NCBI GenBank assembly: GCA_965248575.1
Contig: CBDFJQ010000002.1
Location: 3,929,375-3,993,374 of the forward strand
Source: Planctomycetota bacterium
GTDB taxonomy: Bacteria; Planctomycetota; B15-G4
DNA: 64,000 nucleotides
Direction: 5' to 3'
The notes below the pieces were generated by a model. It ran no database searches. It had not been told where the DNA came from and saw only the letters and a program-made list of their open reading frames with translations. This document shows, one piece after another, positions 24,904 to 50,632 of this stretch. The position numbers and the translations under genes were made by a program. The stretch's first letter is position 1; each line of letters starts with the position of its first letter.

Positions 24904-25230
24904 ATGGCGAAGAAGATCAGTCGACTATGGGCTGCGGTGGCCGTCACACTCGCAACTGCCTTGCTGTGCTGGTACGTGGTCATTCCAGCCATCTACGATC
25001 ATTACTTCGAATACGAGACGGCTCTGCATAGAGTTGATCACTTGGTAGGTTCAGGGCGTCAGTTCGCGGAGAACTCCGACTTGGTCAACTACCTGTGGCG
25101 CGAGATTCGCGACGACACCAAGAATGTACCCAACATGGGGTTCTTAACGCCCGAGACGCTCTTCGCACGCGGGCGTCACTACACTCTCATCATGCTTGAG
25201 GAAGCACTGGAGCGCCTCGGTGAGCCCTGA
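24904..25230 (+). CDS. integron cassette ORF 1: small membrane-anchored hypothetical protein
   Basis: ATG 6 nt after attI core; MAKKISRLWAAVAVTLATALLCWYVVIPAI hydrophobic N-terminus; followed by attC. Confidence 0.55.
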   Translation: MAKKISRLWAAVAVTLATALLCWYVVIPAIYDHYFEYETALHRVDHLVGSGRQFAENSDLVNYLWREIRDDTKNVPNMGFLTPETLFARGRHYTLIMLEEALERLGEP

Positions 25231-25235
25231 CGCTT

Positions 25236-25302
25236 GCCTAACTGGCGCTAGCAACGGACGGGGCGCTTCGCGCCCCGCCGCTGAACCGCAGGTACGTTAG
25301 CC
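25236..25302 (+). repeat. attC site 1 (GCCTAAC ... GTTAGCC)
   Basis: Imperfect palindrome bounded by inverse core and core. Confidence 0.7.
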
Positions 25303-25319
25303 AGATGGAGCGTTGAGTG

Positions 25320-25712
25320 ATGCGAACGGTCTTTGCTGTTCTGGCAGGTGTGCTGGTGCATTTTCTGGTGCTGTCTGTCGTCGTTTCGCAGACGGTGACA
25401 CTTCAAGTCGTCCAAGAAGGAGCTGCGCCACTACCCGACGAGAATCCTCTGGTGTCGTGGGTGATCCTTGCGTGCATGTTCGTCGTAGCGGCGCTAGTCG
25501 GCGGAACGGCCGCCGGAGCCGTTTCAAAAGGGCGTTTCGCTCTGGCCTCGTGCCTCGTCGGGGCATGGGGTGCCATGCTGCTGTTCGCCAACGGTCAGAG
25601 TGCTGCAGACCTAGCATTCACCGTAGTCCTTGCCGGTGCAGTACTCTGTGTTCCCGCCGCACTCCTTGGGGGCTACACGTGGAAGAGGTTCTGTGCCAAG
25701 CCAACTGGCTAA
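25320..25712 (+). CDS. integron cassette ORF 2: hypothetical membrane protein
   Basis: Hydrophobic 130-aa ORF; stop TAA lies inside attC inverse core. Confidence 0.55.
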   Translation: MRTVFAVLAGVLVHFLVLSVVVSQTVTLQVVQEGAAPLPDENPLVSWVILACMFVVAALVGGTAAGAVSKGRFALASCLVGAWGAMLLFANGQSAADLAFTVVLAGAVLCVPAALLGGYTWKRFCAKPTG

Positions 25713-25773
25713 CAAGCGCTTGCAGCGGACGGTCCGCTGCGCGGCCCGCCGCTGAACCGCCAGTCCGTTAGGC
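25707..25773 (+). repeat. attC site 2 (GGCTAAC ... GTTAGGC), type A with internal palindrome GCAGCGGAC-G-GTCCGCTGC
   Basis: ctaacaagcgcttgcagcggacggtccgctgcgcggcccgccgctgaaccgccagtccgttaggc. Confidence 0.8.
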
Positions 25774-25799
25774 AGCACCACACTCTTGGAGTTGGGCCG

Positions 25800-26129
25800 A
25801 TGGTCGAATTGCGCCGAATAGAGCCCCTACCTCTCGGGAAGCTGCAGGCCTTTATTTGGGCAGCTCTTGCGCTAGTGCGCGCCGTGCCGATGCTTTTCGC
25901 TACCGTGTTCGAGGGGCCAGGTTCCGAGTTGTGGGGCGAGTTCAGCATCACCTCCATTGTGGACATGACGGGATTCTATGGGCTATTGCTCAGTCCCGTG
26001 GTTGCAGGGTTCTGGGGGCTCATTAATGGCTGCATTATTGCGTTAGCATACAACTGGGCTGCTGGGCAGCTCGGTGGCGTTAAGATCACGATAGTGACGG
26101 CAAGCGAACGTGATGGGGCCAGCGCATGA
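25800..26129 (+). CDS. integron cassette ORF 3: hypothetical membrane protein
   Basis: 109-aa hydrophobic ORF between attC 2 and attC 3. Confidence 0.55.
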   Translation: MVELRRIEPLPLGKLQAFIWAALALVRAVPMLFATVFEGPGSELWGEFSITSIVDMTGFYGLLLSPVVAGFWGLINGCIIALAYNWAAGQLGGVKITIVTASERDGASA

Positions 26130-26135
26130 CGGTCT

Positions 26136-26202
26136 GCCTAACAAGCGCTTGCAGCGGACGGTCCGCTGCGCGGCCCGCCGCTGAACCGCCAGTCCGTTAG
26201 GT
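26136..26202 (+). repeat. attC site 3 (GCCTAAC ... GTTAGGT), type A
   Basis: Near-identical to attC 2. Confidence 0.8.
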
Positions 26203-26209
26203 GGACGTA

Positions 26210-26572
26210 ATGCCGGATGTGAGTGCTCAACCATCGATGATCGAGAAAGTGCGATGCGAAGTCGTGACCTACGATCTGACGTATGCGGAGAAACAGCTGA
26301 TTGCCAAGGGAGCACTCGCGCCAGTTCTGGAGCGTTTGCACAGTACTGCGAGTGACAGCGTAGGCGACTGCGCAAGGTGGAGTGGTATTGCGGCAGTCAT
26401 CGGTTTCGTGGTGCTCCTCGTTGGGCCAAGGAGCAACTCTGTGTGGATTTGGGCGGTTAGCAGTTTTGGGCATCTAGCCTTAGCCGTAGTTCTTGGCTAC
26501 ATGAGCACCCGCCAGCGTAGGGAGGAAAGGCACCTTGCGAATCTCCTCGATACATTGAGGGAGGCAGAGTGA
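26210..26572 (+). CDS. integron cassette ORF 4: hypothetical protein with C-terminal TM segment
   Basis: ATG 26210 (MPDVSAQPSMIEK...); cassette position. Confidence 0.5.
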   Translation: MPDVSAQPSMIEKVRCEVVTYDLTYAEKQLIAKGALAPVLERLHSTASDSVGDCARWSGIAAVIGFVVLLVGPRSNSVWIWAVSSFGHLALAVVLGYMSTRQRREERHLANLLDTLREAE

Positions 26573-26590
26573 AGGCGTCTCTGAGACACC

Positions 26591-26657
26591 ACCTAACAAG
26601 CGCTTGCAGCGGACGTTCCGCTGCGCGGACCGCCGCTGAACCACAGGTCCGTTAGAT
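26591..26657 (+). repeat. attC site 4 (ACCTAAC ... GTTAGAT), type A
   Basis: Same repeat family with point differences. Confidence 0.75.
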
Positions 26658-26747
26658 GGGCGGATCTACGCAGGAAGGTGCAACACACAGGGTCTCCAAG
26701 TGTTAGATGAACCAAACGGAGAGCAACCGAAGAAGCGGCGCACCGCA

Positions 26748-26885
26748 ATGGCTACGAGTGTTTCGATTGGGGCAGCTGTTGGGGCCGTGTTCGGCGTGGC
26801 GGTGAGCAACATTGGCCTCGGCATTGCTATTGGCGTTGCGGTGGGCGTGGCCATCGGCGCAAGTCGAGAGGCAGGTAGGAAGTGA
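26748..26885 (+). CDS. integron cassette ORF 5: small glycine-zipper membrane peptide
   Basis: MATSVSIGAAVGAVFGVAVSNIGLGIAIGVAVGVAIGASREAGRK; alternative GTG start at 26700. Confidence 0.45.
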   Translation: MATSVSIGAAVGAVFGVAVSNIGLGIAIGVAVGVAIGASREAGRK

Positions 26886-26890
26886 ATGCC

Positions 26891-26952
26891 ATCTAACAAG
26901 CCGCACCAGACGGACCGGGCTCCGCCCGGCTGCTGAACGCCAGTCGGCAAGG
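26891..26952 (+). repeat. attC site 5, type B with degenerate R' core (GGCAAGG in place of GTTAGGC)
   Basis: atctaacaagccgcaccagacggaccgggctccgcccggctgctgaacgccagtcggcaagg; R' core altered. Confidence 0.5.
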
Positions 26953-27003
26953 CGGCAACATTGGACCGACGCACCACACAGGAGAGAACTATTGGCCGAC
27001 AAT

Positions 27004-27423
27004 GTGAAGACCACAGCGGCGACGGTGATTCCGACCATGCGATACAACGATGCAGCGGCAGCCATCGCGTGGCTCTGCGAAGCGTTCGGATTCGAGAAAC
27101 ACCTGGTCGTTCCCGGTGAAGACGGCACAATCGCCCACGCACAGCTCGTCTTCGGGAATGGAATGGTAATGCTCGCCTCAGCGCGCGCGAGCGAGTTCGA
27201 CAACCTTCACAAGCTGCCGAGCGCCCTGGGCGACGCCGTATCTCAGAGCCCGTACATCATCGTCGACGACGCCGACAAACACTACGCACGAGCTGTTGCG
27301 GCGGGCGCAGAGATCGTGATTGAAATTAGGGACGAGGATTACGGGGGCCGAGGCTACTCTTGTCGCGATCCCGAAGGGCACGTTTGGAACTTCGGCTCCT
27401 ACGATCCCTGGGCCTCCGCCTAA
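27004..27423 (+). CDS. integron cassette ORF 6: VOC-family (glyoxalase/bleomycin-resistance fold) protein
   Basis: GTG start; (M)KTTAATVIPTMRYNDAAAAIAWLCEAFGFEKHLVVPGEDGTIAHAQLVFGNGMVM...DEDYGGRGYSCRDPEGHVWNFGSYDPW resembles PhnB/VOC proteins. Confidence 0.7.
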   Translation: MKTTAATVIPTMRYNDAAAAIAWLCEAFGFEKHLVVPGEDGTIAHAQLVFGNGMVMLASARASEFDNLHKLPSALGDAVSQSPYIIVDDADKHYARAVAAGAEIVIEIRDEDYGGRGYSCRDPEGHVWNFGSYDPWASA

Positions 27424-27484
27424 CAAGCGCTTGCAGCGGACGGTCCGCTGCGCGGCCCGTCGCTGAACCGCCAGTCCGTTGGGC
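27418..27484 (+). repeat. attC site 6 (GCCTAAC ... GTTGGGC), type A
   Basis: Stop TAA inside inverse core. Confidence 0.8.
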
Positions 27485-27514
27485 GGACGGAGTCACTGAC
27501 CGCGGGAGAGTGGA

Positions 27515-27757
27515 ATGGCCATGACCTGGACGATAGTGCTAGTTGTAGTGCATGTGGTTCTTGCTCTCGCGGCTATTCGCTACGCACGAAAGAAGTCTAC
27601 CTGGACGCGTGGCCCACAGTTCGCAGTCGTCTGTGCATTGGCAATTCCGATAGTTGGACCAATAATGACCCTTCTTTCAGCAGCCGCTTCGGGAAGCGGT
27701 GAATACGTAGACGAGAGTGTGCAATACGGCGTCGATCCACCGGACCTAGGTAGCTAG
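27515..27757 (+). CDS. integron cassette ORF 7: small membrane protein
   Basis: 80-aa ORF, two hydrophobic helices. Confidence 0.5.
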   Translation: MAMTWTIVLVVVHVVLALAAIRYARKKSTWTRGPQFAVVCALAIPIVGPIMTLLSAAASGSGEYVDESVQYGVDPPDLGS

Positions 27758-27798
27758 AATGGCGACTAGTTCAAGAGAGCCAAGGCGTTACGCCGCAC

Positions 27799-27862
27799 GC
27801 CCAACAAGCCTTTTCAGACGGACCGGGCTTCGCCCGGCCGCCGAACCGCAGGTCCGCTAGCT
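27799..27862 (+). repeat. attC site 7, type B (GCCCAAC ... GCTAGCT)
   Basis: cccaacaagccttttcagacggaccgggcttcgcccggccgccgaaccgcaggtccgctagct. Confidence 0.6.
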
Positions 27863-27875
27863 AGACGGAACAGTC

Positions 27876-28097
27876 ATGAGGGAGCAGGGCAAAGGACGAC
27901 GGATCAGGCATGTCCAGAACTGGGATCTCCATGTCTTCATGCTGCTCTTTGTCGTACCAGCTTTTGCTGGAGGCCTTTGGCTGGTCCATCCTCTTCTGGG
28001 CTTGGTTGTGGTCGCCATCTTCGTAGTCTGGGTTGTAGACAACGTGCACGAGTCCAATCGTCTCCAGGAGCGCGGCCGCCGTGAGCGCACTAGCTAA
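27876..28097 (+). CDS. integron cassette ORF 8: small membrane protein
   Basis: 73-aa ORF with hydrophobic helices; stop inside attC inverse core. Confidence 0.5.
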   Translation: MREQGKGRRIRHVQNWDLHVFMLLFVVPAFAGGLWLVHPLLGLVVVAIFVVWVVDNVHESNRLQERGRRERTS

Positions 28098-28158
28098 CAA
28101 GCGCTTGCAGCGGACGGTCCGCTGCGCGTCCCGCCGCTGACCCGCAGATACGTTAGCC
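28092..28158 (+). repeat. attC site 8 (AGCTAAC ... GTTAGCC), type A
   Basis: Same repeat family. Confidence 0.8.
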
Positions 28159-28160
28159 GG

Positions 28161-28514
28161 ATGGAGGCGATGCCGGTCACCAAGTTCCAAGAGGAATGGA
28201 ATGAGATCGCAGTGCGGTGGGGCCTCTACGTGAAGGCGCCGTTCGTGGTCAAACTCATTCACGGAGAAGTCACCGTCCCTGTGCTTCTTCGAGACTTCGG
28301 CGCCTCTCACGGGATGCTACTTGTTACGGACTATGGCCTGATCTCTCCCCACTGGGAGGAACTCGTGAGCCTTGGTTTTGGGTTCTCGTGCCTCAGTGAG
28401 CCTGACGGAGTGAGCCACCCCGACGACGACGAAGCCCTCATGGAGATGCTCTCAGACTGGGGATGGTCGGGAAGCGAGAACCCTCCCGAGTGGTATCGTG
28501 AACCCAGTAGCTAA
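28161..28514 (+). CDS. integron cassette ORF 9: hypothetical soluble protein
   Basis: 117-aa ORF starting 3 nt after attC 8; no recognised motif. Confidence 0.5.
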   Translation: MEAMPVTKFQEEWNEIAVRWGLYVKAPFVVKLIHGEVTVPVLLRDFGASHGMLLVTDYGLISPHWEELVSLGFGFSCLSEPDGVSHPDDDEALMEMLSDWGWSGSENPPEWYREPSS

Positions 28515-28572
28515 CCAGCCGTAGCAGACGGGCCGGGCTGGGCCCGGCCGCTGAACGGCAGGTCCGTTAGGC
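28509..28572 (+). repeat. attC site 9, type B (AGCTAAC ... GTTAGGC)
   Basis: agctaaccagccgtagcagacgggccgggctgggcccggccgctgaacggcaggtccgttaggc. Confidence 0.75.
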
Positions 28573-28591
28573 GCACGAAGGGGGAGTACTG

Positions 28592-29107
28592 ATGCCCGTT
28601 CGATTCGAATGCTCGAAATGCGGACAGGACATCTCGTCGTTCATGCGCGTTGGAGAGACTGCGGAATGTCCATCATGCGGCGCGCGAGTGCAGGTACCTG
28701 CTTCGGCGGAGCGCAGAGGACTTACCTATGAGCCGTCGCAAAGAGGGGGCTACCCAGCGCCGACGATCGCTGACGGGCCCCCGGCGGAGTCGATACCACA
28801 TGCTGAGGCTTTCACCGTGAGGCGGATCCAGGCACGGACGATTCTCCAACTATCTCTGATCGGCCACCTCTGCTTCTGCATTCCGGCTTTTCTGCTCGTG
28901 GGGCTTGGGGCAGCCCTCGGATTCGAGGGCTGGTCGGTAACGTGGAATGACGAACCCGTGACTGGAGTCATGGCCGTGCTTGTAGCTCTGCCTCTTGGCG
29001 TAGGCGCAGGGCTCGGATCCGGCCTCGCCAATGGAACCGTCGCCTGCATTGGCCTCTGGATCTACTCCAGGTTTCGGTGGGTGACGGTCCACTATGCGCG
29101 AGCGTAG
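28592..29107 (+). CDS. integron cassette ORF 10: zinc-ribbon plus transmembrane protein
   Basis: N-terminal CSKCGQ...CPSCGARV (Cx2C...Cx2C) followed by hydrophobic helices. Confidence 0.55.
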   Translation: MPVRFECSKCGQDISSFMRVGETAECPSCGARVQVPASAERRGLTYEPSQRGGYPAPTIADGPPAESIPHAEAFTVRRIQARTILQLSLIGHLCFCIPAFLLVGLGAALGFEGWSVTWNDEPVTGVMAVLVALPLGVGAGLGSGLANGTVACIGLWIYSRFRWVTVHYARA

Positions 29108-29113
29108 CATTGC

Positions 29114-29180
29114 GTCTAGCAAGCGCTTGCGGCGGACTGTCCGCTGCGCGTCCCGCCGCTGAATCGCAACGACGTTAGGC
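29114..29180 (+). repeat. attC site 10 (GTCTAGC ... GTTAGGC), type A variant
   Basis: Same repeat family. Confidence 0.7.
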
Positions 29181-29193
29181 AGAGCAACTGACG

Positions 29194-29613
29194 ATGATCG
29201 AATTCCAGCTGTTGCCCAGAACCTCGGACGGGACAGAAGAGCCACAGCTCTGGTTTCGGGTGCGGCTACGCGGTGAGTTCACAGGAGAGCTCGACCTGCA
29301 ATTGGAGACAGCTGAAGTTCTCTCGTTTGTTGAGCAGCTCGCAGGCTTTCCGAGGTCAACAGAGCAGGTTGAATCGGCAAGGCTCGTCGACCGGCACGCA
29401 GCCAGGTTTGCCGATTTCGAAGTTTCCTGCATCGATCGATCGGGGCATGTCCGCGTTGCAGCCAGCCTTGGGTCGGGTTCAGGGCAGTTTGGCGCTCCTG
29501 TCTGGGACACGGTCACAGCCAACGTCGCAGCCGTTGCGGCTGAGATCGACGTGTTTCAGAAGCAGCTTGTAGCGATCATCAAAGGGATTGAGTCCCATGC
29601 GCGCCTTGCCTAA
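29194..29613 (+). CDS. integron cassette ORF 11: hypothetical protein
   Basis: 139-aa ORF; no recognised motif. Confidence 0.5.
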   Translation: MIEFQLLPRTSDGTEEPQLWFRVRLRGEFTGELDLQLETAEVLSFVEQLAGFPRSTEQVESARLVDRHAARFADFEVSCIDRSGHVRVAASLGSGSGQFGAPVWDTVTANVAAVAAEIDVFQKQLVAIIKGIESHARLA

Positions 29614-29670
29614 CAAGTGCGTGCAGCGGACACCGCTCTGCGGCGCAGCTGACCCACTGAGTCGGTAGAT
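29608..29670 (+). repeat. attC site 11 (GCCTAAC ... GGTAGAT), divergent 3' half
   Basis: 5' half matches type A; 3' half diverged, adjoining a lower-GC cassette. Confidence 0.5.
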
Positions 29671-29686
29671 ATATGAACGGTGTTTA

Positions 29687-30199
29687 ATGAACGAAAAGCA
29701 ACCACGAATAATGCCATCCACTGAGTCCCAATCTCTACCAGGTAAGGGCAAGTCAGGCCGGTTCTGGCAAGGGTTCTGGCTTATATTCCTAGTGGTTTCA
29801 CTTGCCTACGCTTGGTACTCCTTCTATGCGCCTTCCAACCGCATCGCCTGGGCCGATAACTTCACGGCTGCGCAACAACAGGCAGTCAAGTCTGACAAAC
29901 CGATGATTCTCTTTTTCACTGGCAAGTGGTGTTCACCCTGCCAGATCATGAAACGTCAAGTCTGGGCGGATGAACAGGTGATGGCTGCGGTCAATGAGGC
30001 GTTCATCCCTGTGACGATTGACGTGGATGACCCTAATGCGGCCTCGGCATTGAGTCGGTACGGTGTTGGCCTAACGCCAACCACTATCATCACGGATTCA
30101 AAAGGGAATGTCTTGCAACGGAACCACGGGAGGATGAGCAAAACCGAATTCCTCGAATTGTTAGGTGAGATTGATCCATCGACCGTCGAAGATCTGTAA
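29687..30199 (+). CDS. integron cassette ORF 12: thioredoxin-fold protein (WCSPC active site), lower-GC cassette
   Basis: MILFFTGKWCSPCQIMKRQVWADEQV...: CxxC thioredoxin-like motif; N-terminal TM anchor; composition visibly AT-richer than flanks. Confidence 0.65.
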   Translation: MNEKQPRIMPSTESQSLPGKGKSGRFWQGFWLIFLVVSLAYAWYSFYAPSNRIAWADNFTAAQQQAVKSDKPMILFFTGKWCSPCQIMKRQVWADEQVMAAVNEAFIPVTIDVDDPNAASALSRYGVGLTPTTIITDSKGNVLQRNHGRMSKTEFLELLGEIDPSTVEDL

Positions 30200-30251
30200 T
30201 GCTAAGCGACTGCACCGTCTCTCTTCGGGCAATCATTGGTTTCGTTGGACT

Positions 30252-30312
30252 ATCTAACCATTCGTTGCACCAGACCGGCTTCGCCGACAGGTGAACGGCA
30301 AACCCGTTAGCC
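30252..30312 (+). repeat. attC site 12 (ATCTAAC ... GTTAGCC), distinct sequence type
   Basis: Bounded by canonical cores; internal sequence unlike types A/B. Confidence 0.6.
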
Positions 30313-30330
30313 AGATCAACTGAGGTTATC

Positions 30331-31116
30331 GTGGGCACTGCTCCCAGCAATCTCCGATGTCGAATAACGGATGCCGTGTGCAAAGCGTTACGGCCGTTGC
30401 CCCATGTGTTCGCCGGATGGGAGGGCGGGAGCGCTGCCTTCGATCTCGTGGATGAGTACTCCGACATAGACTTGAACTTCTTGTTGGATGACGCGGCCCT
30501 GGTCGATTCCCTTTATGCCGTTGTCGAGTCTGCACTCGAGACTGTGTCGCCGATTTCTACCACCCACTTTGAGCCCCCCGGCCGCTACTACAAATTGAGG
30601 GATGGTGGAGATTTCCTCCTGGTCGATGTGTGCATCTACCAGCCTGGGTCGCTCAGCGAGTGCCTCGACGTTGATCGTCACGGGAAAATTCGGCAGCTCT
30701 TCGACAAGGGGCAGTGGCTACGCAGCGAGACCTCAAGCGTGGTGTCCCAGCGAGCTACCCGAGCCAAGCGTCGGGACGATCTCGAAGAGTGGTTTTCCGT
30801 GAGTCAGAGTTTTGTCCGCAAGGCAATCATGCGCGGCCACGAGGTGGAGGCCTTGGCGGCGTTCTGGGGTTACACGCTCAAGCCACTCGTGGAAATTCTT
30901 CGCATGCGGTATTGCCCCGCACGATGGGACTTCGGCATGCGCTATCTGCAGAGAGATCTTCCAGGTCCTGTGTACGATGAGCTGCGGGGCATCATGTTTG
31001 TCGGAGAGTCTGTCGACCTAGCGGAAAAACTAGCGAAGGCGGTCGCATGGGGAGAGAGGCTACTGAGAGAATCTAAGCCGGGCAGTGAGATTGGACCTTC
31101 GCCAAGGGCTGGCTAA
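30331..31116 (+). CDS. integron cassette ORF 13: nucleotidyltransferase-fold protein
   Basis: GWEGGSAAFDLVDEYSDIDLNF fits the GS-x(n)-D-x-D minimal nucleotidyltransferase motif; substrate unknown. GTG start. Confidence 0.55.
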   Translation: MGTAPSNLRCRITDAVCKALRPLPHVFAGWEGGSAAFDLVDEYSDIDLNFLLDDAALVDSLYAVVESALETVSPISTTHFEPPGRYYKLRDGGDFLLVDVCIYQPGSLSECLDVDRHGKIRQLFDKGQWLRSETSSVVSQRATRAKRRDDLEEWFSVSQSFVRKAIMRGHEVEALAAFWGYTLKPLVEILRMRYCPARWDFGMRYLQRDLPGPVYDELRGIMFVGESVDLAEKLAKAVAWGERLLRESKPGSEIGPSPRAG

Positions 31117-31239
31117 CAAGGCGCTGCAGCTGACCGGCTCATGCGTCGGCGTTCCCAGGTTCTGGTAGTCTCTCGAACACGAAGGCGTTTCGAGGCCGGG
31201 GGCAAATCCCGCTGGCATCTGAGCGCCGGTCCGTTAGCT
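31111..31239 (+). repeat. attC site 13, long form (GGCTAAC ... GTTAGCT)
   Basis: About 129 bp between inverse core and core. Confidence 0.55.
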
Positions 31240-31255
31240 GGGCCAAGGAGCGACC

Positions 31256-31540
31256 GTGTCCAAACCAGCCAAGCTGTCGCTCGTGATGGCGGTGATCGCG
31301 ATGCTCCTGGCAGCTCCATTGTTGGGGGGGCACCAGTTGAGCGTGCATGGTGATCCATACACGTACATCTTCTTCCTCCCGAACATCGTTCCGCTGTTGG
31401 TACTTGAGTCGGCAGGCTATTTGCCAACAGATCACGAGTTGCTTGCGGCTGCCTCCAGTGTCGGGTTCTGGGTCATCACTGGAGCTGCGATTGGGTGGGT
31501 TTCAGTCTGGCGAACCCGAGGAGATCAAGATGCCACATAG
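31256..31540 (+). CDS. integron cassette ORF 14: small membrane protein
   Basis: GTG start; 94-aa hydrophobic ORF. Confidence 0.5.
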   Translation: MSKPAKLSLVMAVIAMLLAAPLLGGHQLSVHGDPYTYIFFLPNIVPLLVLESAGYLPTDHELLAAASSVGFWVITGAAIGWVSVWRTRGDQDAT

Positions 31541-31543
31541 CCA

Positions 31544-31605
31544 GCTACCAGCCGTAGCGGACGGACCGGGCTACGCCCGTCCGCTGAACGGCAGATACGT
31601 TAGCC
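31544..31605 (+). repeat. attC site 14, type B (AGCTACC ... GTTAGCC)
   Basis: agctaccagccgtagcggacggaccgggctacgcccgtccgctgaacggcagatacgttagcc. Confidence 0.7.
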
Positions 31606-31618
31606 GGATCAGGGAGGG

Positions 31619-32095
31619 GTGTTCGATATGTCTAGCCAAGATGTTGCCTCGTTCGTACTGAGGCTCTTGGGCGTCTTATTGCTCGTGACCTCGATTCCGA
31701 TTGCGATGGCCGTCATTGCTGACCAAGGGGGCCCCGGCTTGGGACCACTGACGGCGTCTGTCCTTGTTGGAGTGGCCCTCATTGTTTGGAGTCGGCCGCT
31801 CGGCAGTCGAATCGCTCCGAGCCCTGGCAAGCCCTCCGATGCGAAAGCATTGTCTGTCACGGACTGGCAGGCCATCGCCTTCTCGGCAATCGGCATCATG
31901 GTCATCGTGCGCAGCCTTGAGGCCTTCGCCGACAGTTACTTTCGATCCGAGGCGTTCGGAGCAGAGTTGTGGCCATGGCCCTTCACGGCGGTCCCCCTCT
32001 TGCAGTTGGTGGTTGGAGTCCTCCTGTTCTTCCAAGGGAGGGGTTTGGCCGCCTTCTGGCGCCGTTCGCAAGGAGACGGCGGTTCCAGCGGCTGA
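31619..32095 (+). CDS. integron cassette ORF 15: hypothetical membrane protein
   Basis: 158-aa ORF with 4 hydrophobic segments. Confidence 0.5.
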   Translation: MFDMSSQDVASFVLRLLGVLLLVTSIPIAMAVIADQGGPGLGPLTASVLVGVALIVWSRPLGSRIAPSPGKPSDAKALSVTDWQAIAFSAIGIMVIVRSLEAFADSYFRSEAFGAELWPWPFTAVPLLQLVVGVLLFFQGRGLAAFWRRSQGDGGSSG

Positions 32096-32156
32096 CACGC
32101 GCAAGCAACGGACGGTCCGCTGCGCGCCCCGCCGCTGAACCGCAGATGTGTTAGAC
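32091..32156 (+). repeat. attC site 15, type A variant (... GTTAGAC)
   Basis: gcaagcaacggacggtccgctgcgcgccccgccgctgaaccgcagatgtgttagac. Confidence 0.65.
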
Positions 32157-32178
32157 AGAGTTAGAGAGGAGGAACACG

Positions 32179-32673
32179 ATGGCTGACAGCAACGGCTCGT
32201 CCGTCCAGCGCGCTGCCCAAGCGAGGCGAGATCTCCTGCCTTCGTGGTTGAGGTCCATCTGCGTTCTCGTGGTTCCACTCTCGCTAGCAACCGTAGCGCT
32301 TCTCGCGACCGGCGTTCTCAAGCCCGACTCCTTCGACTTGAAGCTCCTCGGCATCGCCTACGGCGCGCTTTCACAGCCCGCCGCATTGGCCAGCCAGGTT
32401 TTCGTCATTGCGCTGGGTGTCTCCGCTGTTGGTTTGCTCCGCGGCGATGTGTGGGCTCTTGGTCTAGCGAGCTTCCTCAGCATTGTCGGCGTCGCCATGG
32501 CGCCGAGCGTCATCGAGTTCACTGAACCAGGATTCCATCTGAGGTTCGATGCACTGATCTTCGTTTCTCTCATCATTGCCCTGGAAAGGCGTCGAGCAGG
32601 ATGGAAGGCCGTCACAAGATCCAACCCTGTCAAACAAGAGCTTGCAGCGGATGCCGCTCCACCTAACCGCTGA
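32179..32673 (+). CDS. integron cassette ORF 16: hypothetical membrane protein; coding sequence reads through the 5' half of its attC
   Basis: 164-aa ORF; C-terminal ...VKQELAADAAPPNR is encoded by the attC-like sequence caaacaagagcttgcagcgg... Confidence 0.5.
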   Translation: MADSNGSSVQRAAQARRDLLPSWLRSICVLVVPLSLATVALLATGVLKPDSFDLKLLGIAYGALSQPAALASQVFVIALGVSAVGLLRGDVWALGLASFLSIVGVAMAPSVIEFTEPGFHLRFDALIFVSLIIALERRRAGWKAVTRSNPVKQELAADAAPPNR

Positions 32674-32691
32674 ACCACTGAGACGTTGGAC
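32629..32691 (+). repeat. attC site 16, short type A variant (GTCAAAC ... GTTGGAC)
   Basis: Same family, diverged. Confidence 0.55.
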
Positions 32692-32713
32692 GGAGCATTC
32701 AACCTTGGGTCCA

Positions 32714-32959
32714 ATGTCGCCAAGAGTCCTGATGTCAGGTTCCGCGATCGTCGTTGCGGACGTTGGATTTGGGATGGTCATCTGGGGGACCACGGCCTGT
32801 GCCATGAGGGACGAGAGGCTCGGCTGGTGGGGTAGGGTCATGGCCCCAGTCCTTCTTCTCCACGCATTCGGTTTCTGGGTGGTGATGCGAGCGGCCCCGT
32901 GGCTCAAGAGAGCTTCGGACGACAGAGATCAGTTTGCGGGAGGCTCCGGTGCGAGTTGA
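32714..32959 (+). CDS. integron cassette ORF 17: small membrane protein (shares a cassette with ORF 18)
   Basis: 81-aa hydrophobic ORF; no attC between it and the next ORF. Confidence 0.4.
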   Translation: MSPRVLMSGSAIVVADVGFGMVIWGTTACAMRDERLGWWGRVMAPVLLLHAFGFWVVMRAAPWLKRASDDRDQFAGGSGAS

Positions 32960-33536
32960 ATGTCTACTCTGGGACTTCGGGGACACGCTCTGCGACGAGC
33001 TCTCGCTCTGGCGCGCGACCCCCGAATGGATGGATGTCTACCGCTCGTTCGACGATGGGCTTGGCGCCGCTTGGAGCCTGGGCGAGCTCGACACTCCCGG
33101 CTTCGTGGCTGAGTTGGCCAAGCGCATGCCGCTTGCCGAAGCGGAGATCCTCGCGCACTTGAACCGCACCGATCTCTTCGAGTTCTTTCCGTTCACCTAT
33201 GCGTTCTTTCGCGACCGCCACCTTCCCCAGGCCATCGTGACCGTGAATCCCACCTTCTTCTCCGAGGTCGTTGTGCCCGGCTGCGCCTTGGACAACGTCA
33301 CGGACGCTATCGTCGTTTCGGGAGAAGAAGGGACGATTGACAAGGGTGAGCTCTGTCACCGAGCCCTTCAACGCATGGACTTCGACTCTGACCCTTCTCA
33401 CGCGTTGCTGATCGACAACAAGAAATCCAACCTCGACGCCTGGGCGAAGCGAGGCGGTGTCGGGTATTTGTATACGACCGATTCTGCGTTTCGACAGGAC
33501 GTTGCCCGCGGCATTGATCACCTCAGAGAGCGTTAG
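32949..33536 (+). CDS. integron cassette ORF 18: HAD-like hydrolase-fold protein
   Basis: GTG start; (M)RVECLLWDFGDTLCDE resembles HAD motif I; C-terminal LLIDNKKSNLDAWAKRGGVGYLY resembles motifs III/IV. Tentative. Confidence 0.5.
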   Translation: MRVECLLWDFGDTLCDELSLWRATPEWMDVYRSFDDGLGAAWSLGELDTPGFVAELAKRMPLAEAEILAHLNRTDLFEFFPFTYAFFRDRHLPQAIVTVNPTFFSEVVVPGCALDNVTDAIVVSGEEGTIDKGELCHRALQRMDFDSDPSHALLIDNKKSNLDAWAKRGGVGYLYTTDSAFRQDVARGIDHLRER

Positions 33537-33557
33537 GAATCCACGCGCTGGGTCGCC

Positions 33558-33692
33558 CTCTAACAAGCGGTTGCAGGTGACGACCAACAGTTCGCCTCAA
33601 TCGATCCGTGGTACGGTTCTGGCGGCGGGTGCTGCGCCCAAGCGTTCGCGGTCAACGCTGTTGGGCGCAGCTGAATCGCATGTCCGTTGGTC
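33558..33692 (+). repeat. attC site 18, long form (CTCTAAC ... GTTGGTC)
   Basis: About 135 bp, distinct internal sequence. Confidence 0.5.
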
Positions 33693-33719
33693 CGACCTCA
33701 ATCTGTTCTTTTCCGGTAG

Positions 33720-34274
33720 GTGCACGAGTTGAAACGGGTGGTAGTTCTTGACTACGACGCGGCCTGGGCCACGGTCTTCCAGGGGTTGCGTTTACCTGTG
33801 TGGAGTGCTCTTTCTGACATCGCGATCTCCGTGGAGCACGTTGGGAGCACAGCCGTCCCGGGCCTGGCAGCCAAGCCCGTGATTGACTTTGACGTGGTCG
33901 TCCCACAAAGCGAGCAAGCAGAGGCTATCGCGCGACTCTCTTCGCTTGGTTACGTGCACCGGGGTGACTTGGGAGTGCCGCAGCGGGAGGCGTTCCGTCC
34001 TCCGAAGGGTTCTCCGCATCACCATCTCTACCTCTGCCTGCCGACGAGTCCTGCACACGCCAACCACATCGCAATCCGTGACCATCTTCGCGCTCACCCT
34101 ACGGATGCAATGGCCTACGGGGACCTCAAGAGGCGTCTTGCTCAAGAGTTCCCCCACGACATGGACGGGTACATAGAGGGTAAGACCGGTTTCCTGGTCG
34201 CGATTCTTCGCAGGCTTGGCTTTGCGGAGGAAGCTTTGGGCAGCATCGAGCGAATGAACCACCGACCAGGCTAA
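33720..34274 (+). CDS. integron cassette ORF 19: GrpB-family (UPF0157) protein
   Basis: GTG start; ...ISVEHVGSTAVPGLAAKPVIDFDVVV... and overall length match the GrpB family. Confidence 0.7.
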   Translation: MHELKRVVVLDYDAAWATVFQGLRLPVWSALSDIAISVEHVGSTAVPGLAAKPVIDFDVVVPQSEQAEAIARLSSLGYVHRGDLGVPQREAFRPPKGSPHHHLYLCLPTSPAHANHIAIRDHLRAHPTDAMAYGDLKRRLAQEFPHDMDGYIEGKTGFLVAILRRLGFAEEALGSIERMNHRPG

Positions 34275-34411
34275 GCCGGTGAGCCAACACCCCCCTGGGG
34301 CAGACGGAGTCCTTGTCAAACCCGCTGCCCCAGCGCGATACTGTGCGTGAAGTGCGTGGAAGCAACCGGACGCGACAAGGCCTCCGTTGCTGAACCGCAT
34401 GTCCGTTAGGC
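34269..34411 (+). repeat. attC site 19, long form (GGCTAAG ... GTTAGGC)
   Basis: About 143 bp; canonical R' core. Confidence 0.5.
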
Positions 34412-34437
34412 GGTGATTCTGAGCGGCAAGGAGAAGC

Positions 34438-34824
34438 ATGTCCAAACTCGTGATGGGCCTCGGCGTGTTCATTATTCTCGCGAGTCTGTGGGTCCTGGTG
34501 TTTCCGGAGCAACTCGTGTCGCTCACGGACTGGGAATCGCGAGAAATGCTCTACGTCGCAGCCGGGATGAGGGTCGTGATCGGGCTTGTCCTGGTCCTGT
34601 CCGCTTCGTCTACGAGGTCTCCCACGGGCATTCGGGTCGTCGGCGGCCTGACCGTTCTCGCTGGCATCGGCCTTCTGTTCATTCCAATCGATTTGTGGAG
34701 GGACCTGATTCAGTATTGGCTCGTTGACAACCTCGCCATGTATCGCTTCGGTGGTGGGGCATTCGGAATACTGATTGGCGCCTTCTTCGTGCATGCATCC
34801 TCGCCCAAGACGCCTTCCGCCTGA
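34438..34824 (+). CDS. integron cassette ORF 20: hypothetical membrane protein
   Basis: 128-aa ORF with 4 hydrophobic segments. Confidence 0.5.
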   Translation: MSKLVMGLGVFIILASLWVLVFPEQLVSLTDWESREMLYVAAGMRVVIGLVLVLSASSTRSPTGIRVVGGLTVLAGIGLLFIPIDLWRDLIQYWLVDNLAMYRFGGGAFGILIGAFFVHASSPKTPSA

Positions 34825-34885
34825 GATGCGCTTGCAGCGAATCGTCCGCTGTGCGCCCCACCGCTGAATCGCAGATACGTAAGCC
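34818..34885 (+). repeat. attC site 20, type A variant (GCCTGAG ... GTAAGCC)
   Basis: gcgcttgcagcgaatcgtccgctgtgcgccccaccgctgaatcgcagatacgtaagcc. Confidence 0.6.
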
Positions 34886-34899
34886 ACGGAGTAGGGCAA

Positions 34900-35262
34900 T
34901 TGATCAAGTTCATCATGTGTTTGAGGCGCCGCCGAGGGATGACCCGCGAGGACTTCAAGGAGTACTGGAAGAACAAGCACGGCCCGTTCTTCATGAAGAA
35001 TGCAGAGAAGATGGGTGCCAAGAAATACGTGCAGTCTTACACCTTGAATACGCCACTGAATGAAGGCCTCAGGACTTCCAGGGGTATGCTTCCTGAATAT
35101 GATGGTCTTGCGGAAGTCTGGTTCGATTCAGAAGAAGCACTCCTGGAGGGAATGAGTTCTCCGGAAGGGCAACGACTGGGCGCGGCCTTGCTGGAGGATG
35201 AGGGCAACTTCATCGATCACTCGAAGTCCTCGGCGTTCATTGTTGAAGAGCACGAGTTCTAG
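34900..35262 (+). CDS. integron cassette ORF 21: EthD-like (dimeric alpha/beta-barrel) protein, lower-GC
   Basis: ...DGLAEVWFDSEEALLEGMSSPEGQRLGAALLEDEGNFIDHSKSSAFIVEEHEF matches the EthD-family C-terminal pattern; TTG start in track, ATG 34915 alternative. Confidence 0.6.
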   Translation: MIKFIMCLRRRRGMTREDFKEYWKNKHGPFFMKNAEKMGAKKYVQSYTLNTPLNEGLRTSRGMLPEYDGLAEVWFDSEEALLEGMSSPEGQRLGAALLEDEGNFIDHSKSSAFIVEEHEF

Positions 35263-35291
35263 AGTCGCTGGCCCAACCGGACGAGGTATCT

Positions 35292-35819
35292 GTGGGACAA
35301 CTCCCAGAACTGCCTTCGGACAGCGACCTTGAGATCCTCACGCCGCGTCTGAAACTGGTGCCGATGCGCAGCGTGCACGCTGCGATCATGTTCCCCGTTC
35401 TGTCGGACGCCAAGCTCTACGAGTTCATCGGCGGTTCCCCTCCGTCTTCAGAAGAGTCGCTTGCGGATGTCTACGCCTCACGGGAATCGCGTCGATCGCC
35501 CGGTGGCGACCAACTTTGGCTCAACTGGCTCATGTGGGAGTCAGAGCAAGGGGAGGCCGTGGGATACACGCAGGCAACGGTCCATCCGACGCACGCCTAC
35601 GTGGCTTGGCTCGTTGACACGCGGTGGCAAGGTCTTGGCCATGCGTCTGAAGCGGCAACGGCTCTCGTGAGGTGGCTGGTTGCACTAGGTGTGCAAGAGA
35701 TTCGGGCGTGTGTGAACCTGGGCCACACGGCCAGTCGACGAGTGGCGCACAACGCTGGTCTGCGCATGACCAAGGACTTCATCGATGGTGAGGAAGCGTG
35801 GGCGTATCGTGCTCCGTGA
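35292..35819 (+). CDS. integron cassette ORF 22: GNAT-family N-acetyltransferase (RimJ/RimL-like)
   Basis: GTG start; LETPRLKLVP-like N-terminus (ILTPRLKLVPM) and acetyl-CoA-binding-like WQGLGHASEAATALVRW; no attC between ORF 21 and 22. Confidence 0.65.
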   Translation: MGQLPELPSDSDLEILTPRLKLVPMRSVHAAIMFPVLSDAKLYEFIGGSPPSSEESLADVYASRESRRSPGGDQLWLNWLMWESEQGEAVGYTQATVHPTHAYVAWLVDTRWQGLGHASEAATALVRWLVALGVQEIRACVNLGHTASRRVAHNAGLRMTKDFIDGEEAWAYRAP

Positions 35820-35829
35820 CGACCGGTTT

Positions 35830-36458: not shown

Positions 36459-38234
36459 ATGACCAACAGGCTGCACGCGTTCCTTTCCATCGCTCTGGCG
36501 ATCCTGATTCCGGCGACTGAGGCGGGCGCTCAAGAGCCTTCTCAGCAGCCCTCTCGAATGGCTGCGCCGCTCGTCCAGATGCATGCCGAGGCTTCGGCCG
36601 GCCTGCTCTGGCACACCGCGCGTTCGTCCGGTGCGCTGACGCTGTCGGTCTCTGGGCCTGCCGACTTCTCGCACCAAGCGCAGTTCGAGCGGGGCGCCAC
36701 GCCCTTCTTGCCGCTCGTGAACAGCTTGGGGCAACGGCTGCCGGACGGCCTCTACAGCTATGAGTTCGTGGAGCGCCTGGAGTTCGCCCCGCACCTCGCC
36801 GCGGGTCTGCGTTCGGCGCGGCAAGCGGGCGATGAGGCGCTGGTCCAATCGCTCCTGGCGAGCGAGGGCACACCGCCCACTGCGACGAAGCAGACAGGAT
36901 TCTTCCGCGTGCACGAGGGCTTGATCGTGACGCCCGACTCGCTCAGCGAGTCCACGGCGTCTGTCTCGAGCGGCCCCCAGGTGGACGTCGGCGATCCGGC
37001 CGTGTCCAAGCCTCCGTTCGGGGACGACGACGACGACGGCGATGGCGACGGTGACGGCGACGACTTCTGGCCCGGGGACGGTGGGATCCCGGAGGACCAG
37101 GTCATCCTCGACGACCTGATCGTGGACGGTAACCTGTGCGCGGGGATTGACTGTGTGGACGGCGAGTCCTTCAGTACAGACACCCTCCGGCTCAAGGCCA
37201 ACAACCTTCGCATCCACTTCGACGACACGAGTAGCTCGGCCTCCTTTCCCCGGAACGACTGGAGGATCGAGGTCAACGACGACGCAAACGGCGGAGCGGA
37301 CTACTTCGGGATCGAGGACACCACTGCGGGAAGGATGCCTTTCCGGGTGCTGGCAGGCGCGCAGGACGACGCGCTCTTCCTCACGTCCAACAAGGTGGGC
37401 TTCGGGACGGCGGCGCCCGTCGTGGAACTGCACGTCGTCGACGGGGACACACCGACGCTGCGTCTGGATCAGGACGGCAGCAACGGCTTCACGCCCCAGA
37501 CATGGGACGTCGCCGGTAACGAGGCTGGCTTCTTCATCCGCGATGTGACCAACGGTTCCACCCTGCCGTTCCGGCTCATCGACGGCGCTCCATCCAGCAG
37601 CATCCACATCGGATCGAATGGTGATGTGGGCTTCGGCAGTTCCTCTCCCCAACATCCCATCCACGTGCGGCGTTTGGACGGCACGGCCAAGATCCTGGTA
37701 GAGGAGCTTACGAGCACGCCTGACGACCGGTCGCTGCTGGAGCTGAGCAACGAAGGCGGCGTGGCCATCGACCTGACGAACACCCGCCTGGGCAACATGT
37801 GGTCGCTGGGTACCAGCAACGCCGACGAGTTCCGTATCACCACCGACGGGTTGACCCAGCTCCGGCTGGATGACGACGGGAACCTGTCCGTGCCAGGAGC
37901 TATGAACCAGCTCTCGGATGTGGGCGCCAAGCACGGTTTCGAGCCCGTGGACGGCGCCGAGATCCTGGAGAAAGTGGTCAGCCTGCCCTTGAGCAGCTGG
38001 AGCTACCGGCACGACGACACCGAGGCCCGCCACCTCGGGCCCATGGCGCAGGACTTCAGGGCGGCCTTTGCGCTGGGCGCCGATGAACGACACATCGCAC
38101 CCATGGACGTGAGCGGCGTCACTCTCGTGGCGGTGCAGCAGTTGAACAGCAGGATCCTTGAGTTGGAGAGCCTGGTGGGTGCACTCAGCGCCCGCCTGGA
38201 AGCACTCGAAGCCGCGCAGTCGGAGGCAAAGTGA
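36459..38234 (+). CDS. secreted tail-fibre-like protein with C-terminal intramolecular chaperone (peptidase S74-like) domain
   Basis: Signal peptide MTNRLHAFLSIALAILIPATEAGAQ; acidic tract DDDDDGDGDGDGDD; C-terminal ...SLPLSSWSYRHDDTEARHLGPMAQDFRAAFALGADERHIAPMDVSGVTLVAVQQLNSRILELESLVGALSARLEALEAAQ matches the self-cleaving chaperone domain of phage tail spikes. Confidence 0.7.
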   Translation: MTNRLHAFLSIALAILIPATEAGAQEPSQQPSRMAAPLVQMHAEASAGLLWHTARSSGALTLSVSGPADFSHQAQFERGATPFLPLVNSLGQRLPDGLYSYEFVERLEFAPHLAAGLRSARQAGDEALVQSLLASEGTPPTATKQTGFFRVHEGLIVTPDSLSESTASVSSGPQVDVGDPAVSKPPFGDDDDDGDGDGDGDDFWPGDGGIPEDQVILDDLIVDGNLCAGIDCVDGESFSTDTLRLKANNLRIHFDDTSSSASFPRNDWRIEVNDDANGGADYFGIEDTTAGRMPFRVLAGAQDDALFLTSNKVGFGTAAPVVELHVVDGDTPTLRLDQDGSNGFTPQTWDVAGNEAGFFIRDVTNGSTLPFRLIDGAPSSSIHIGSNGDVGFGSSSPQHPIHVRRLDGTAKILVEELTSTPDDRSLLELSNEGGVAIDLTNTRLGNMWSLGTSNADEFRITTDGLTQLRLDDDGNLSVPGAMNQLSDVGAKHGFEPVDGAEILEKVVSLPLSSWSYRHDDTEARHLGPMAQDFRAAFALGADERHIAPMDVSGVTLVAVQQLNSRILELESLVGALSARLEALEAAQSEAK

Positions 38235-49909: not shown

Positions 49910-49935
49910 AGGTGTGGCGCGGGTGGTCCTGGAGA

Positions 49936-50493: not shown

Positions 50494-50632
50494 ACCGACA
50501 CCCGTTAGACTGGGGCACTCAGTGGTCGGCGCGGGCGGCTGAGTCGTGAGCACACTGAGCGCATGAAGCTGGCTGGGTTTGTGAGCAACGATCCCATCAC
50601 GAGGGGGCTCAACCATCGAGAAGACCCGACTT

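Follow-up and report, generated by a model that had tools for sequence, protein, structure and literature searches.

The gene cassettes described here lie in a window of 64,000 nucleotides from a Planctomycetota bacterium (GenBank assembly GCA_965248575.1, contig CBDFJQ010000002.1, positions 3,929,375 to 3,993,374 of the forward strand), which very probably carries an ordinary sedentary chromosomal integron in which the distal cassettes are a reservoir, weakly expressed, of proteins that handle small molecules. Positions below are those of the window, and all genes and sites are on the + strand unless stated otherwise. Six genes between 27004 and 35819 had been put forward in an initial annotation as cassettes with candidate detoxification or antibiotic-modifying functions, namely a VOC protein, a nucleotidyltransferase (NTase), a HAD-like protein and members of the GrpB, EthD and GNAT families, and all six open reading frames (ORFs) are present as annotated. 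What the present analysis adds is a ranked shortlist for functional testing, with the NTase first, the VOC protein second and the other four genes at low priority. The GNAT, which had been counted with the NTase and the VOC protein among those most worth testing, is thereby moved down to join the remaining three.

The setting is that of a complete integron. The integrase gene intI (23535-24692, 385 codons) encodes an IntI-type tyrosine recombinase that matches TIGR02249 with 416 bits, against a cutoff of 265, over profile positions 2-315 of 315, in addition to the Pfam families PF00589 and PF13495. It adjoins an array of approximately 21 small downstream ORFs on the same strand, which are separated by a repeat of about 67 nucleotides. 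A candidate attI core read from the sequence, GTTAGGC (24891-24897), is located 7 nucleotides upstream of the ATG of the first cassette ORF (24904). The repeat begins with GCCTAAC and finishes with GTTAGGC, corresponding to the R'' and R' cores of an attC site. Such cores follow the patterns RYYYAAC (R'') and GTTRRRY (R'), the site as a whole being an imperfect palindrome of the form R''-L''...L'-R'. The array occupies a block of low GC content, approximately 24.7-36.0 kb with intI at its left edge, in which GC is 0.56-0.61 as against 0.65-0.70 in the flanks. Similarly, GC content at third codon positions (GC3) is 0.59-0.75 in the flagged cassette ORFs and 0.81-0.88 in intI and the flanking genes, a difference that fits a foreign origin of the cassette ORFs. 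The nearest named homologues of the cassettes come from metagenome-assembled genomes (MAGs) of Myxococcota, 'Deltaproteobacteria' and Planctomycetota. Transcription of intI runs toward attI and the cassettes, an atypical layout described in Treponema (PMC3607928), and read-through from intI could feed cassette transcription.

About 19 attC sites are recognised between 25232 and 34889 from repeat families (labelled D3 to D9 where they are named below), a covariance model and folding combined. A strict regular expression for R''...R' cores recovered the sites in part and returned several false ones, and was replaced by a covariance model (R1) built from nine clear copies, with a canonical fold consisting of an outer R''/R' stem, an inner L''/L' stem and an extrahelical G. 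Since RNAalifold returned a non-canonical local hairpin on the attC alignment, the canonical fold was set by hand and then checked by sliding; on the nine copies 89.9% of cells are paired in the proposed fold, compared with 20-42% when the partners are slid by 1-3 columns. The R1 search recovers its nine source copies at E 1e-19 to 1e-24 and finds nine further sites at E 4e-11 to 0.035, as well as one degenerate site at E 0.38. Little covariation is seen among the copies because they are nearly identical, as expected of a sedentary chromosomal array. Built from sites of 67 nucleotides, R1 is blind to the long attC that follows the NTase cassette. The integrase score, the attC E-values, the pairing in the slid comparison and the GC3 contrast place the integron setting far outside chance expectation.

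These sites uphold the description as cassettes for four of the six genes, VOC, NTase, HAD-like and GrpB, each of which is bounded by attC, whereas EthD and GNAT lie past the last detectable one. The VOC cassette is closed by a strong site (27414-27488, R1 93.3 bits, E 8e-24), while the site upstream of it (26887-26957, 13.5 bits, E 0.38, repeat family D4) is degenerate, having GGCAAGG in place of GTTRRRY as its R' core and a fold z-score of -0.73. The NTase is preceded by the attC that closes a thioredoxin-like cassette (30248-30316, 22.9 bits, E 8e-4) and is followed by a long attC of approximately 127 nucleotides (31109-31243), identified from repeat families and folding. The R''-L'' half of this long site belongs to repeat family D3 and its R' half to D9, and its bottom strand forms a single long hairpin with GCTAAC/GTTAGC closing pairs (-28.8 kcal/mol, z -2.6). 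The HAD-like cassette starts after an attC at 32625-32695 (48.8 bits, E 4e-11) and is closed by a long or composite site (33554-33696) that R1 matches in part (33632-33696, E 0.012). The bottom strand of this closing site folds at -34.3 kcal/mol (z -3.0) with GACCAAC/GTTGGTC pairing, and its R' core, GTTGGTC, ends at approximately 33692. The GrpB cassette ends in an attC (34341-34415, 17.2 bits, E 0.035) whose R' half is found in repeat families D7 and D8 and whose fold reaches a z-score of only -1.3. The last recognisable attC of the array (34815-34889, 76.4 bits, E 5e-19) has the degenerate cores GCCTGAG...GTAAGCC. The site closing the HAD-like cassette looks composite or partly duplicated, in that within 33554-33600 the 5' half of an attC, CTCTAACAAGCGGTTGCAGGTGACG, directly precedes a second R''-like core, GACCAAC, which is the one pairing with R' at approximately 33686-33692.

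Beyond 34889 the R1 search yields no attC on the + strand of the low-GC block, and both the spacer between EthD and GNAT and the stretch 35820-35905 fold like shuffled sequence (z +1.2 and -0.5, respectively). A remnant R' core, GCTGGCC, is present 6 nucleotides after the EthD stop codon. The history of this end of the array can be read against an ENA metagenome contig (ERZ26222911, locus L065), in which a GNAT homologue of 78% identity stands directly after an attC (E 2e-8) and is likewise the final unit of its array. The DNA match between the two loci (window 35262-35828, L065 3256-3822, 82% identity) covers nothing else of them, starting exactly at the R' core, GTTGGCC in L065 and GCTGGCC in the window, and stopping 9 nucleotides past the GNAT stop codon. 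Because the gene follows an attC in L065 and the homology begins at the R' core of that site, the GNAT is, as judged from these two sequences, a cassette-derived module that has no attC in either array, and EthD has lost its attC in the window. Both genes, for want of an attC, are no longer mobilisable by the integrase. Elsewhere in L065 (273-2010) a DinB-family gene and a gene for a 425-amino-acid protein of the beta-lactamase fold (PF00144) are found among attC sites, the latter being another candidate cassette-borne hydrolase.

The gene ranked first encodes a two-domain NTase of 261 amino acids (30331-31116), which is LinB/ANT-like and has no curated family. Its sequence gives no Pfam or NCBIfam match even at E<=10, including PF04439, PF10706, PF01909 and the NCBIfam resistance models. 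A single-sequence search of the PDB finds no match either, and the family profile returns there only HI0073 at E 0.39. The NTase fold, which had originally been proposed from motifs, is confirmed by an AlphaFold2 model with a mean predicted local distance difference test score (pLDDT) of 87.8 and a predicted template modelling score of 0.77, and by invariant catalytic residues. In the model an alpha/beta NTase domain is followed by a helical C-terminal domain packed on it, and the earlier description of the enzyme as 'minimal' is therefore mistaken. A Foldseek search of the PDB with the model places LinB at the top (E 1e-7, template modelling (TM) score 0.60, 264 columns), followed by ANT(6)-Ib, ANT(3'')(9), ANT(4')-Ia, ANT(9) and ANT(4')-IIb. 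The predicted structure thus resembles antibiotic NTases over its full length, in agreement with the lincosamide and aminoglycoside enzymes named in the initial annotation.

Conserved residues point in the same direction. G33-S34, D45-I-D47 and D99 are invariant in 25 close homologues, as are many C-terminal positions, and G33, S44, D45, D47 and D99 are also invariant in 35 relatives of 24-38% identity. These catalytic residues are placed on the expected strands of the model and make up the Pol-beta NTase motif, G-[GS]-x9-13-D-x-[DE] together with a third catalytic carboxylate. Their counterparts in LinB, for D45, D47 and D99, are D40, D42 and E89, while substrate specificity in the NTase superfamily is set by the divergent C-terminal domain (PMC4313920). 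Given the fold and the invariant residues, D45, D47 and D99 would hold two Mg2+ ions and the enzyme would transfer the nucleoside monophosphate of a nucleoside triphosphate to a small-molecule hydroxyl in LinB/ANT style, with the substrate seated between the NTase domain and the helical C-terminal domain. It is our conclusion that the protein probably works like a LinB/ANT-type small-molecule nucleotidyltransferase, although it matches no curated resistance family.

The protein represents a large, unnamed family that lacks a Pfam or NCBIfam model, is mobilised by integrons and stands structurally with LinB, ANT(6) and ANT(4'). A word-indexed search gives 421 matches to unannotated proteins of approximately 260 amino acids, the best 120 of which are 55-86% identical, and an exhaustive profile search reaches at least 1000 clusters (50% identity) at E<=1e-3, with 241 at E<=1e-30. 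Among the 35 distant relatives, PF18765 is matched by 12, PF01909 by 7 and PF04439 by 5 (best E 1.3e-6). PF04439 is the ANT(6) 'streptomycin adenylyltransferase' family, and the link of the window NTase to it runs through these distant relatives. Homologues are found in MAGs and genomes of Myxococcota, Planctomycetota, Cyanobacteria, Acidobacteriota and Gemmatimonadota. According to an attC model trained solely on the attC type of this window, an attC stands directly after the homologue in five loci (L009, L014, L017, L018 and L020) and directly before it in another (L004). Two fusions were also seen, each in a single occurrence. In a Myxococcota MAG (JANQOX010000001.1, locus L012, 3410-4750) an ANT(2'')-family domain (PF10706, E 9e-35) is fused in-frame to an NTase homologue of 66% identity, the two being connected by a linker rich in Pro and Glu in which neither a stop codon nor an attC core occurs; this could be a bifunctional enzyme or two merged neighbouring cassettes. 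In a protein of 434 amino acids (P0294) a GrpB domain (residues 6-163, E 1.7e-47) precedes an NTase-family sequence (residues 177-422), and this fusion hints at a link between GrpB and the NTase family, both of which are separate cassettes in the window.

Second in rank is the VOC protein (27004-27423), which has the glyoxalase/bleomycin-resistance fold (PF00903, E 7e-14) and consists of 139 amino acids when read from its GTG start; an in-frame TTG at 26992, 5 nucleotides after GGAGAG, is an equally plausible start. Its nearest solved relative is TioX (3itw), with E 1.4e-17 and 39.7% identity over 116 positions, and its similarity to a characterised binding protein is thus significant. TioX is encoded in the thiocoraline biosynthesis cluster (PMC4052310; PMC6804068) and sequesters thiocoraline in the manner of BlmA with bleomycin (PMC4052310). 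In our own reading of one pairwise alignment with TioX, strand 1 of the window protein lacks His, and WNF stands in the last strand where TioX has WEF. With 40% identity to TioX, and with the usual His/Glu metal ligands apparently missing, the protein looks more like a binding protein than a metalloenzyme. Against the NCBIfam Fos and bleomycin-binding models no match is obtained, the sole NCBIfam match at E<=10 being 4HPPD with 21 bits against a cutoff of 277. None of the relatives in the plasmid collection reaches 60% identity, and their annotations go no further than 'VOC family protein' or 'glyoxalase'; the best of them (55.6%, from P. aeruginosa) stands among PepSY, aldo/keto reductase and ampDh3 genes and not in an integron. 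VOC cassettes are universally enriched in cassette pools, as are acetyltransferases, and two synthesised VOC cassettes conferred fosfomycin/bleomycin resistance when over-expressed, the authors noting that copy number matters (PMC10661359). Furthermore, bleomycin resistance is conferred by the captured VOC cassettes iblB and iblC (bioRxiv 10.64898/2026.03.15.711940).

The GNAT (35292-35819, 175 amino acids), the terminal unit of the array, is of the RimJ/RimL type (Acetyltransf_3, PF13302, E 1e-14) and also matches PF00583 (E 6e-8); its acetyl-CoA motif, Q113-x-x-G116, is invariant in the family. This family is small, comprising 20 database clusters of 54-80% identity which are called RimJ/RimL wherever they are named. 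A single-sequence search of the PDB with the window protein gives no match. With the family profile the acetyl-CoA core alone is matched, uncharacterised GNATs being best (2e-6) and the next-best matches being Pat and RimL-like protein acetyltransferases, BlmB (E 0.002) and AAC(6')-Iy (E 0.28). None of the NCBIfam AAC models is reached, the best scores being TlmB with 14.9 bits (cutoff 625) and ArsN1b with 13.8 bits (cutoff 210), and the plasmid relatives are generic GNATs of at most 45% identity. Thus, although the GNAT does share the fold of resistance proteins, as do the VOC protein and the NTase and as had been stated, these comparisons found no specific link to aminoglycoside acetyltransferases, either of the AAC(6') or of the AAC(3) kind.

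The HAD-like gene (32934-33536) encodes a protein of 200 amino acids with a predicted C1 cap, similar to YihX and to the phosphatase domain of soluble epoxide hydrolase (sEH). No Pfam or NCBIfam match is found for it even at E<=10, and no match in the PDB by sequence or by family profile. The assignment to the HAD superfamily, initially made from motifs, is moderately supported by the AlphaFold2 model, in which the order of strands and helices fits a HAD core with a C1 cap. All of the top 50 Foldseek matches are C1-cap HAD phosphatases, including YihX, the sEH N-terminal domain and BT_2542, but with TM scores of 0.40-0.47 and a model pLDDT of 66. The residues D14 (the nucleophile), G16, T18, T103, K137, D161 and N166 are invariant in the family, for which a search gives 357 matches, the best 120 of them 70-89% identical. 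Of 80 metagenomic loci carrying a homologue, at least 8 show a flanking attC, and L091 has one on either side of the gene. Within the same cassette, after the attC at 32625-32695, lies a small ORF (32715-32959, 81 amino acids) whose translation resembles a two-helix membrane protein and which runs into the beginning of the HAD-like ORF. Two genes may thus share this cassette, or two former cassettes may have merged through the loss of an attC.

The remaining two genes belong clearly to known families. GrpB (33720-34274, 184 amino acids, NTase fold) matches PF04229 with E 3e-45 (154.5 bits against a cutoff of 25.5) and PDB entry 2nrk with E 8e-29. Its translation contains a G-S...D-F-D motif of its own, HVGSTAVPGLAAKPVIDFDV, and the array therefore holds two cassettes of the NTase fold. 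EthD (34900-35262, 120 amino acids) matches PF07110 with E 1e-20 (74.8 bits against 22) and TIGR02118 with 48.4 bits against 30.5, and a single-sequence PDB search with it gives no match. The Pfam families accordingly bear out the folds assigned to the VOC, GrpB, EthD and GNAT proteins at the outset. A literature search on GrpB and EthD returned nothing on their function or on integrons, and a role in antibiotic modification is documented for none of the HAD-like, GrpB and EthD proteins.

The reading that best unites these observations is that of the ordinary integron stated at the beginning. The region would cover a sedentary chromosomal integron from its middle to its distal end, with approximately 21 promoterless cassettes following intI on the same strand, presumably acquired horizontally and with GC and GC3 below those of the host genome. 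The six flagged genes would be typical array cargo, that is, small one- or two-domain enzymes or binding proteins for small molecules. Alongside the NTase, the VOC protein would sequester a planar or DNA-binding toxin in the manner of TioX and BlmA, the GNAT would carry out acetyl-CoA-dependent acetylation of an amine and the HAD-like protein would act as a YihX-type small-molecule phosphatase. Expression of the reservoir is probably weak, given that its genes are 2-11 kb away from attI and that no promoters belonging to them were detected; a scan restricted to sigma-70-type sites found 3 promoter-like sites where 2.6 are expected by chance. On demand, IntI would move single cassettes into first position, with the exception of EthD and GNAT, which lack an attC.

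A number of points weigh against this reading. Most generally, any substrate named for these proteins is a candidate, and in the comparison with the curated NCBIfam resistance models by profile hidden Markov model, which the initial annotation had proposed as a check, none of the six reaches a model. The prediction of weak expression comes from a promoter scan restricted to sigma-70-type sites. Identity between the NTase and LinB or the ANT enzymes amounts to only 13-16%, a search of 72,556 plasmids found no relative of it, and the over-representation of ANT structures in the PDB biases the ranking of its neighbours toward them. In addition, its C-terminal domain is basic, with an isoelectric point (pI) of 9.5 as against 4.6 for the N-terminal domain, which makes for a poor fit with a polycationic aminoglycoside substrate. 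For the VOC protein, the absence of metal ligands depends on the reading of one pairwise alignment, and the P. aeruginosa relative among ordinary genes indicates that the subfamily is not confined to mobile or resistance contexts. As to the HAD-like protein, the model is of low confidence, and in motif I, D-F-G-D/N-T in the family and D-F-G-D-T in the window protein, the general-acid Asp at position +2 is replaced by Gly.

Of the explanations that compete with or refine this picture, the one that survives best, with somewhat less than an even chance, is that the targets of the enzymes are ordinary metabolites or components of the cell and not xenobiotics, and that the genes are cassette-borne merely as small, self-contained units. 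The NTase might then nucleotidylate a metabolite or a protein, the HAD-like protein might hydrolyse a sugar-phosphate and the GNAT might N-acetylate proteins. The profile of the GNAT fits protein acetyltransferases such as Pat and the RimL-like enzymes at least as well as drug acetyltransferases, consistent with the naming of its homologues, and the fold neighbours of the HAD-like protein are sugar-phosphate and lipid-phosphate phosphatases. GrpB, for its part, is found fused to dephospho-CoA kinase (NF002879, PDB 6n39), and the VOC homologue of P. aeruginosa has ordinary genes as its neighbours. On the other hand, cassette pools are enriched relative to metagenomes for detoxification, stress-tolerance and defence functions, VOC proteins and acetyltransferases included (PMC10661359). 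Moreover, in structure the NTase comes closest, over its full length, to drug-modifying and not to metabolic NTases, and the nearest solved relative of the VOC protein is a toxin-binding protein. For the GNAT, HAD-like, GrpB and EthD proteins, latent resistance is no likelier than a role restricted to metabolism or the cell.

The resistance-type function suggested in the initial annotation keeps its footing for the NTase, by virtue of its LinB/ANT neighbours and intact catalytic triad, and for the VOC protein, by virtue of TioX, but finds no specific support for the other four. It is possible, though not probable, that at least one cassette, likeliest that of the NTase (LinB/ANT-like) or of the VOC protein (TioX-like), holds a working but latent gene for antibiotic resistance. 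The expressed protein would in that case inactivate or sequester a drug of clinical relevance, namely a lincosamide, an aminoglycoside or a compound of the bleomycin family or intercalator type. In favour of it, the best full-length structural neighbours of the NTase are all antibiotic nucleotidyltransferases and its catalytic residues are invariant, distant members of its family reach PF04439, one homologue is fused in-frame to an ANT(2'') domain, and the family is cassette-mobile in several phyla. The VOC protein, in turn, is 40% identical to a drug-sequestering self-resistance protein, and of the published VOC cassettes mentioned above the two synthesised ones gave fosfomycin/bleomycin resistance and the captured ones bleomycin resistance. 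However, no curated model is reached, the NTase family is absent from the plasmid collection, its identity to known enzymes is low and its C-terminal domain is basic. A shared fold, furthermore, is no predictor of substrate where the divergent C-terminal domain sets specificity (PMC4313920), and the published VOC phenotype came from over-expression, with copy number playing a part (PMC10661359). Taken by itself, the proposal that the NTase family inactivates a natural-product antibiotic, whether lincosamide-like, aminoglycoside-like or of a class that has no known nucleotidylating enzyme, is doubtful.

It is improbable that the distal cassettes are silent, decaying passengers which at present have no function in the host. 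Their distance of 2-11 kb from attI, the number of promoters no higher than chance, the lost attC of EthD, the missing attC of the GNAT and the degenerate attC cores at 26887 and 34815 would all fit such a view. All six ORFs are nevertheless intact and of full length compared with their homologues, their catalytic motifs are intact, and the families are strongly conserved across metagenomes (NTase 55-86%, HAD-like 70-89% and GNAT 54-80% identity). Silence within an array is the usual state of a cassette and does not amount to loss of function; it is plausible here, while functional decay is unlikely. Finally, an anti-phage role for the NTase and GrpB, for instance as a CD-NTase-like signal synthase, a fused MNT-HEPN protein or a Hailong-type nucleotidyltransferase, is very improbable. 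Phage-defence genes are documented among integron cassettes, which form a reservoir of them (bioRxiv 10.64898/2026.03.15.711940), and CD-NTases and Hailong HalB appear among the weaker Foldseek matches of the NTase (E about 1e-3), but those matches are weak and partial, PADLOC is negative for all six genes, no conserved HEPN Rx4-6H motif was seen in our reading of the NTase family alignment, and the NTase cassette holds a single gene with no effector partner.

As an ordinary sedentary integron, the locus is a further example of a well-known element, and the resistance hypothesis is a mainstream one for cassette cargo. Environmental integron arrays form the pool from which clinical resistance cassettes have been recruited, and most cassette genes have no known function. 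The closest known system is the sedentary chromosomal integron whose intI points at the cassettes, a layout first reported from Treponema denticola, which the window resembles in its full-length integrase, candidate attI, same-direction array with highly similar attC sites and lower GC. It differs in its high-GC host (about 67%) and in the last two array genes, which have no attC.

Comparable likenesses and differences apply to the individual proteins. From LinB/Lnu(B), ANT(6), ANT(4') and ANT(9)/(3'') the window NTase is set apart not only by the low identity and the want of a curated model or plasmid relatives, but also by its basic C-terminal domain and by invariants of its own, R116-H117-G118, K164, R168, R198-W-D-F-G and R204. 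With TioX, BlmA and Ble the VOC protein shares a single domain of approximately 140 amino acids and an acidic pI of 4.7-4.8, in addition to its identity with TioX. Unlike TioX, it lies outside a biosynthetic cluster and matches no NCBIfam bleomycin-binding or Fos model, its binding function being a prediction. The GNAT has, in common with the RimJ/RimL acetyltransferases, a full-length match to PF13302, a Q-x-x-G-x-G/A motif and a length of approximately 175 amino acids, but its family is small and its similarity to PDB structures is limited to the acetyl-CoA core. The HAD-like protein shares with the HAD IA group (E. coli YihX and the sEH N-terminal domain) a predicted Rossmannoid core, a predicted helical C1 cap after strand 1 and the conserved D14 nucleophile, T103 (motif II), K137 (motif III) and D161 (motif IV), from which its motif I lacking the +2 Asp, the absence of a Pfam match and the low-confidence model are to be set off. 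Motif I of YihX, D-L-G-N-V, is similar to the D-F-G-D/N-T of the HAD-like family.

The significance of the shortlist lies chiefly in the NTase, which has an intact catalytic centre, both domains of the antibiotic nucleotidyltransferases and cassette mobility across phyla, yet goes undetected by curated resistance models. A resistance gene that escapes surveillance by sequence would look like this. Should the enzyme inactivate an antibiotic, it would constitute a mobile environmental resistance gene unseen by current sequence-based surveillance; the ANT(2'') and GrpB fusions would then mark bifunctional modifying enzymes, and GrpB would gain its first functional association. A toxin-binding role is plausible for the VOC protein, and cassette-borne proteins of its type are known to confer bleomycin resistance. 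If none of the genes gives a phenotype, the locus stays an ordinary example of cassette cargo.

The other cassettes of the array (24904-32673) encode mostly proteins of 61-171 amino acids, many of which appear hydrophobic or membrane-like from their translations, and those tested match no Pfam family above the gathering score. The cassette protein at 28592-29107 has sub-threshold zinc-ribbon matches at its N-terminus, and that at 29687-30199 is thioredoxin-like (PF13899, E 5e-16) with an apparent N-terminal membrane anchor. A second array was considered at 49000-54000, where GC falls to 0.61-0.63 and weak attC-like hits occur on the + strand (50087, 52050 and 53190, E 0.4-2.8), and was rejected because the ORFs there are large, including a DUF1697 protein of 406 amino acids and one of 614 amino acids on the minus strand, and no attC is convincing. 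The first large gene to the right of the integron array (36459-38234) encodes a protein of 591 amino acids with a hydrophobic N-terminus that may be a signal peptide, an Asp/Gly-rich repeat, DDDDDGDGDGDGDD, and at the C-terminus the intramolecular chaperone Peptidase_S74, a domain known from endosialidases and from the tail fibres of phages.

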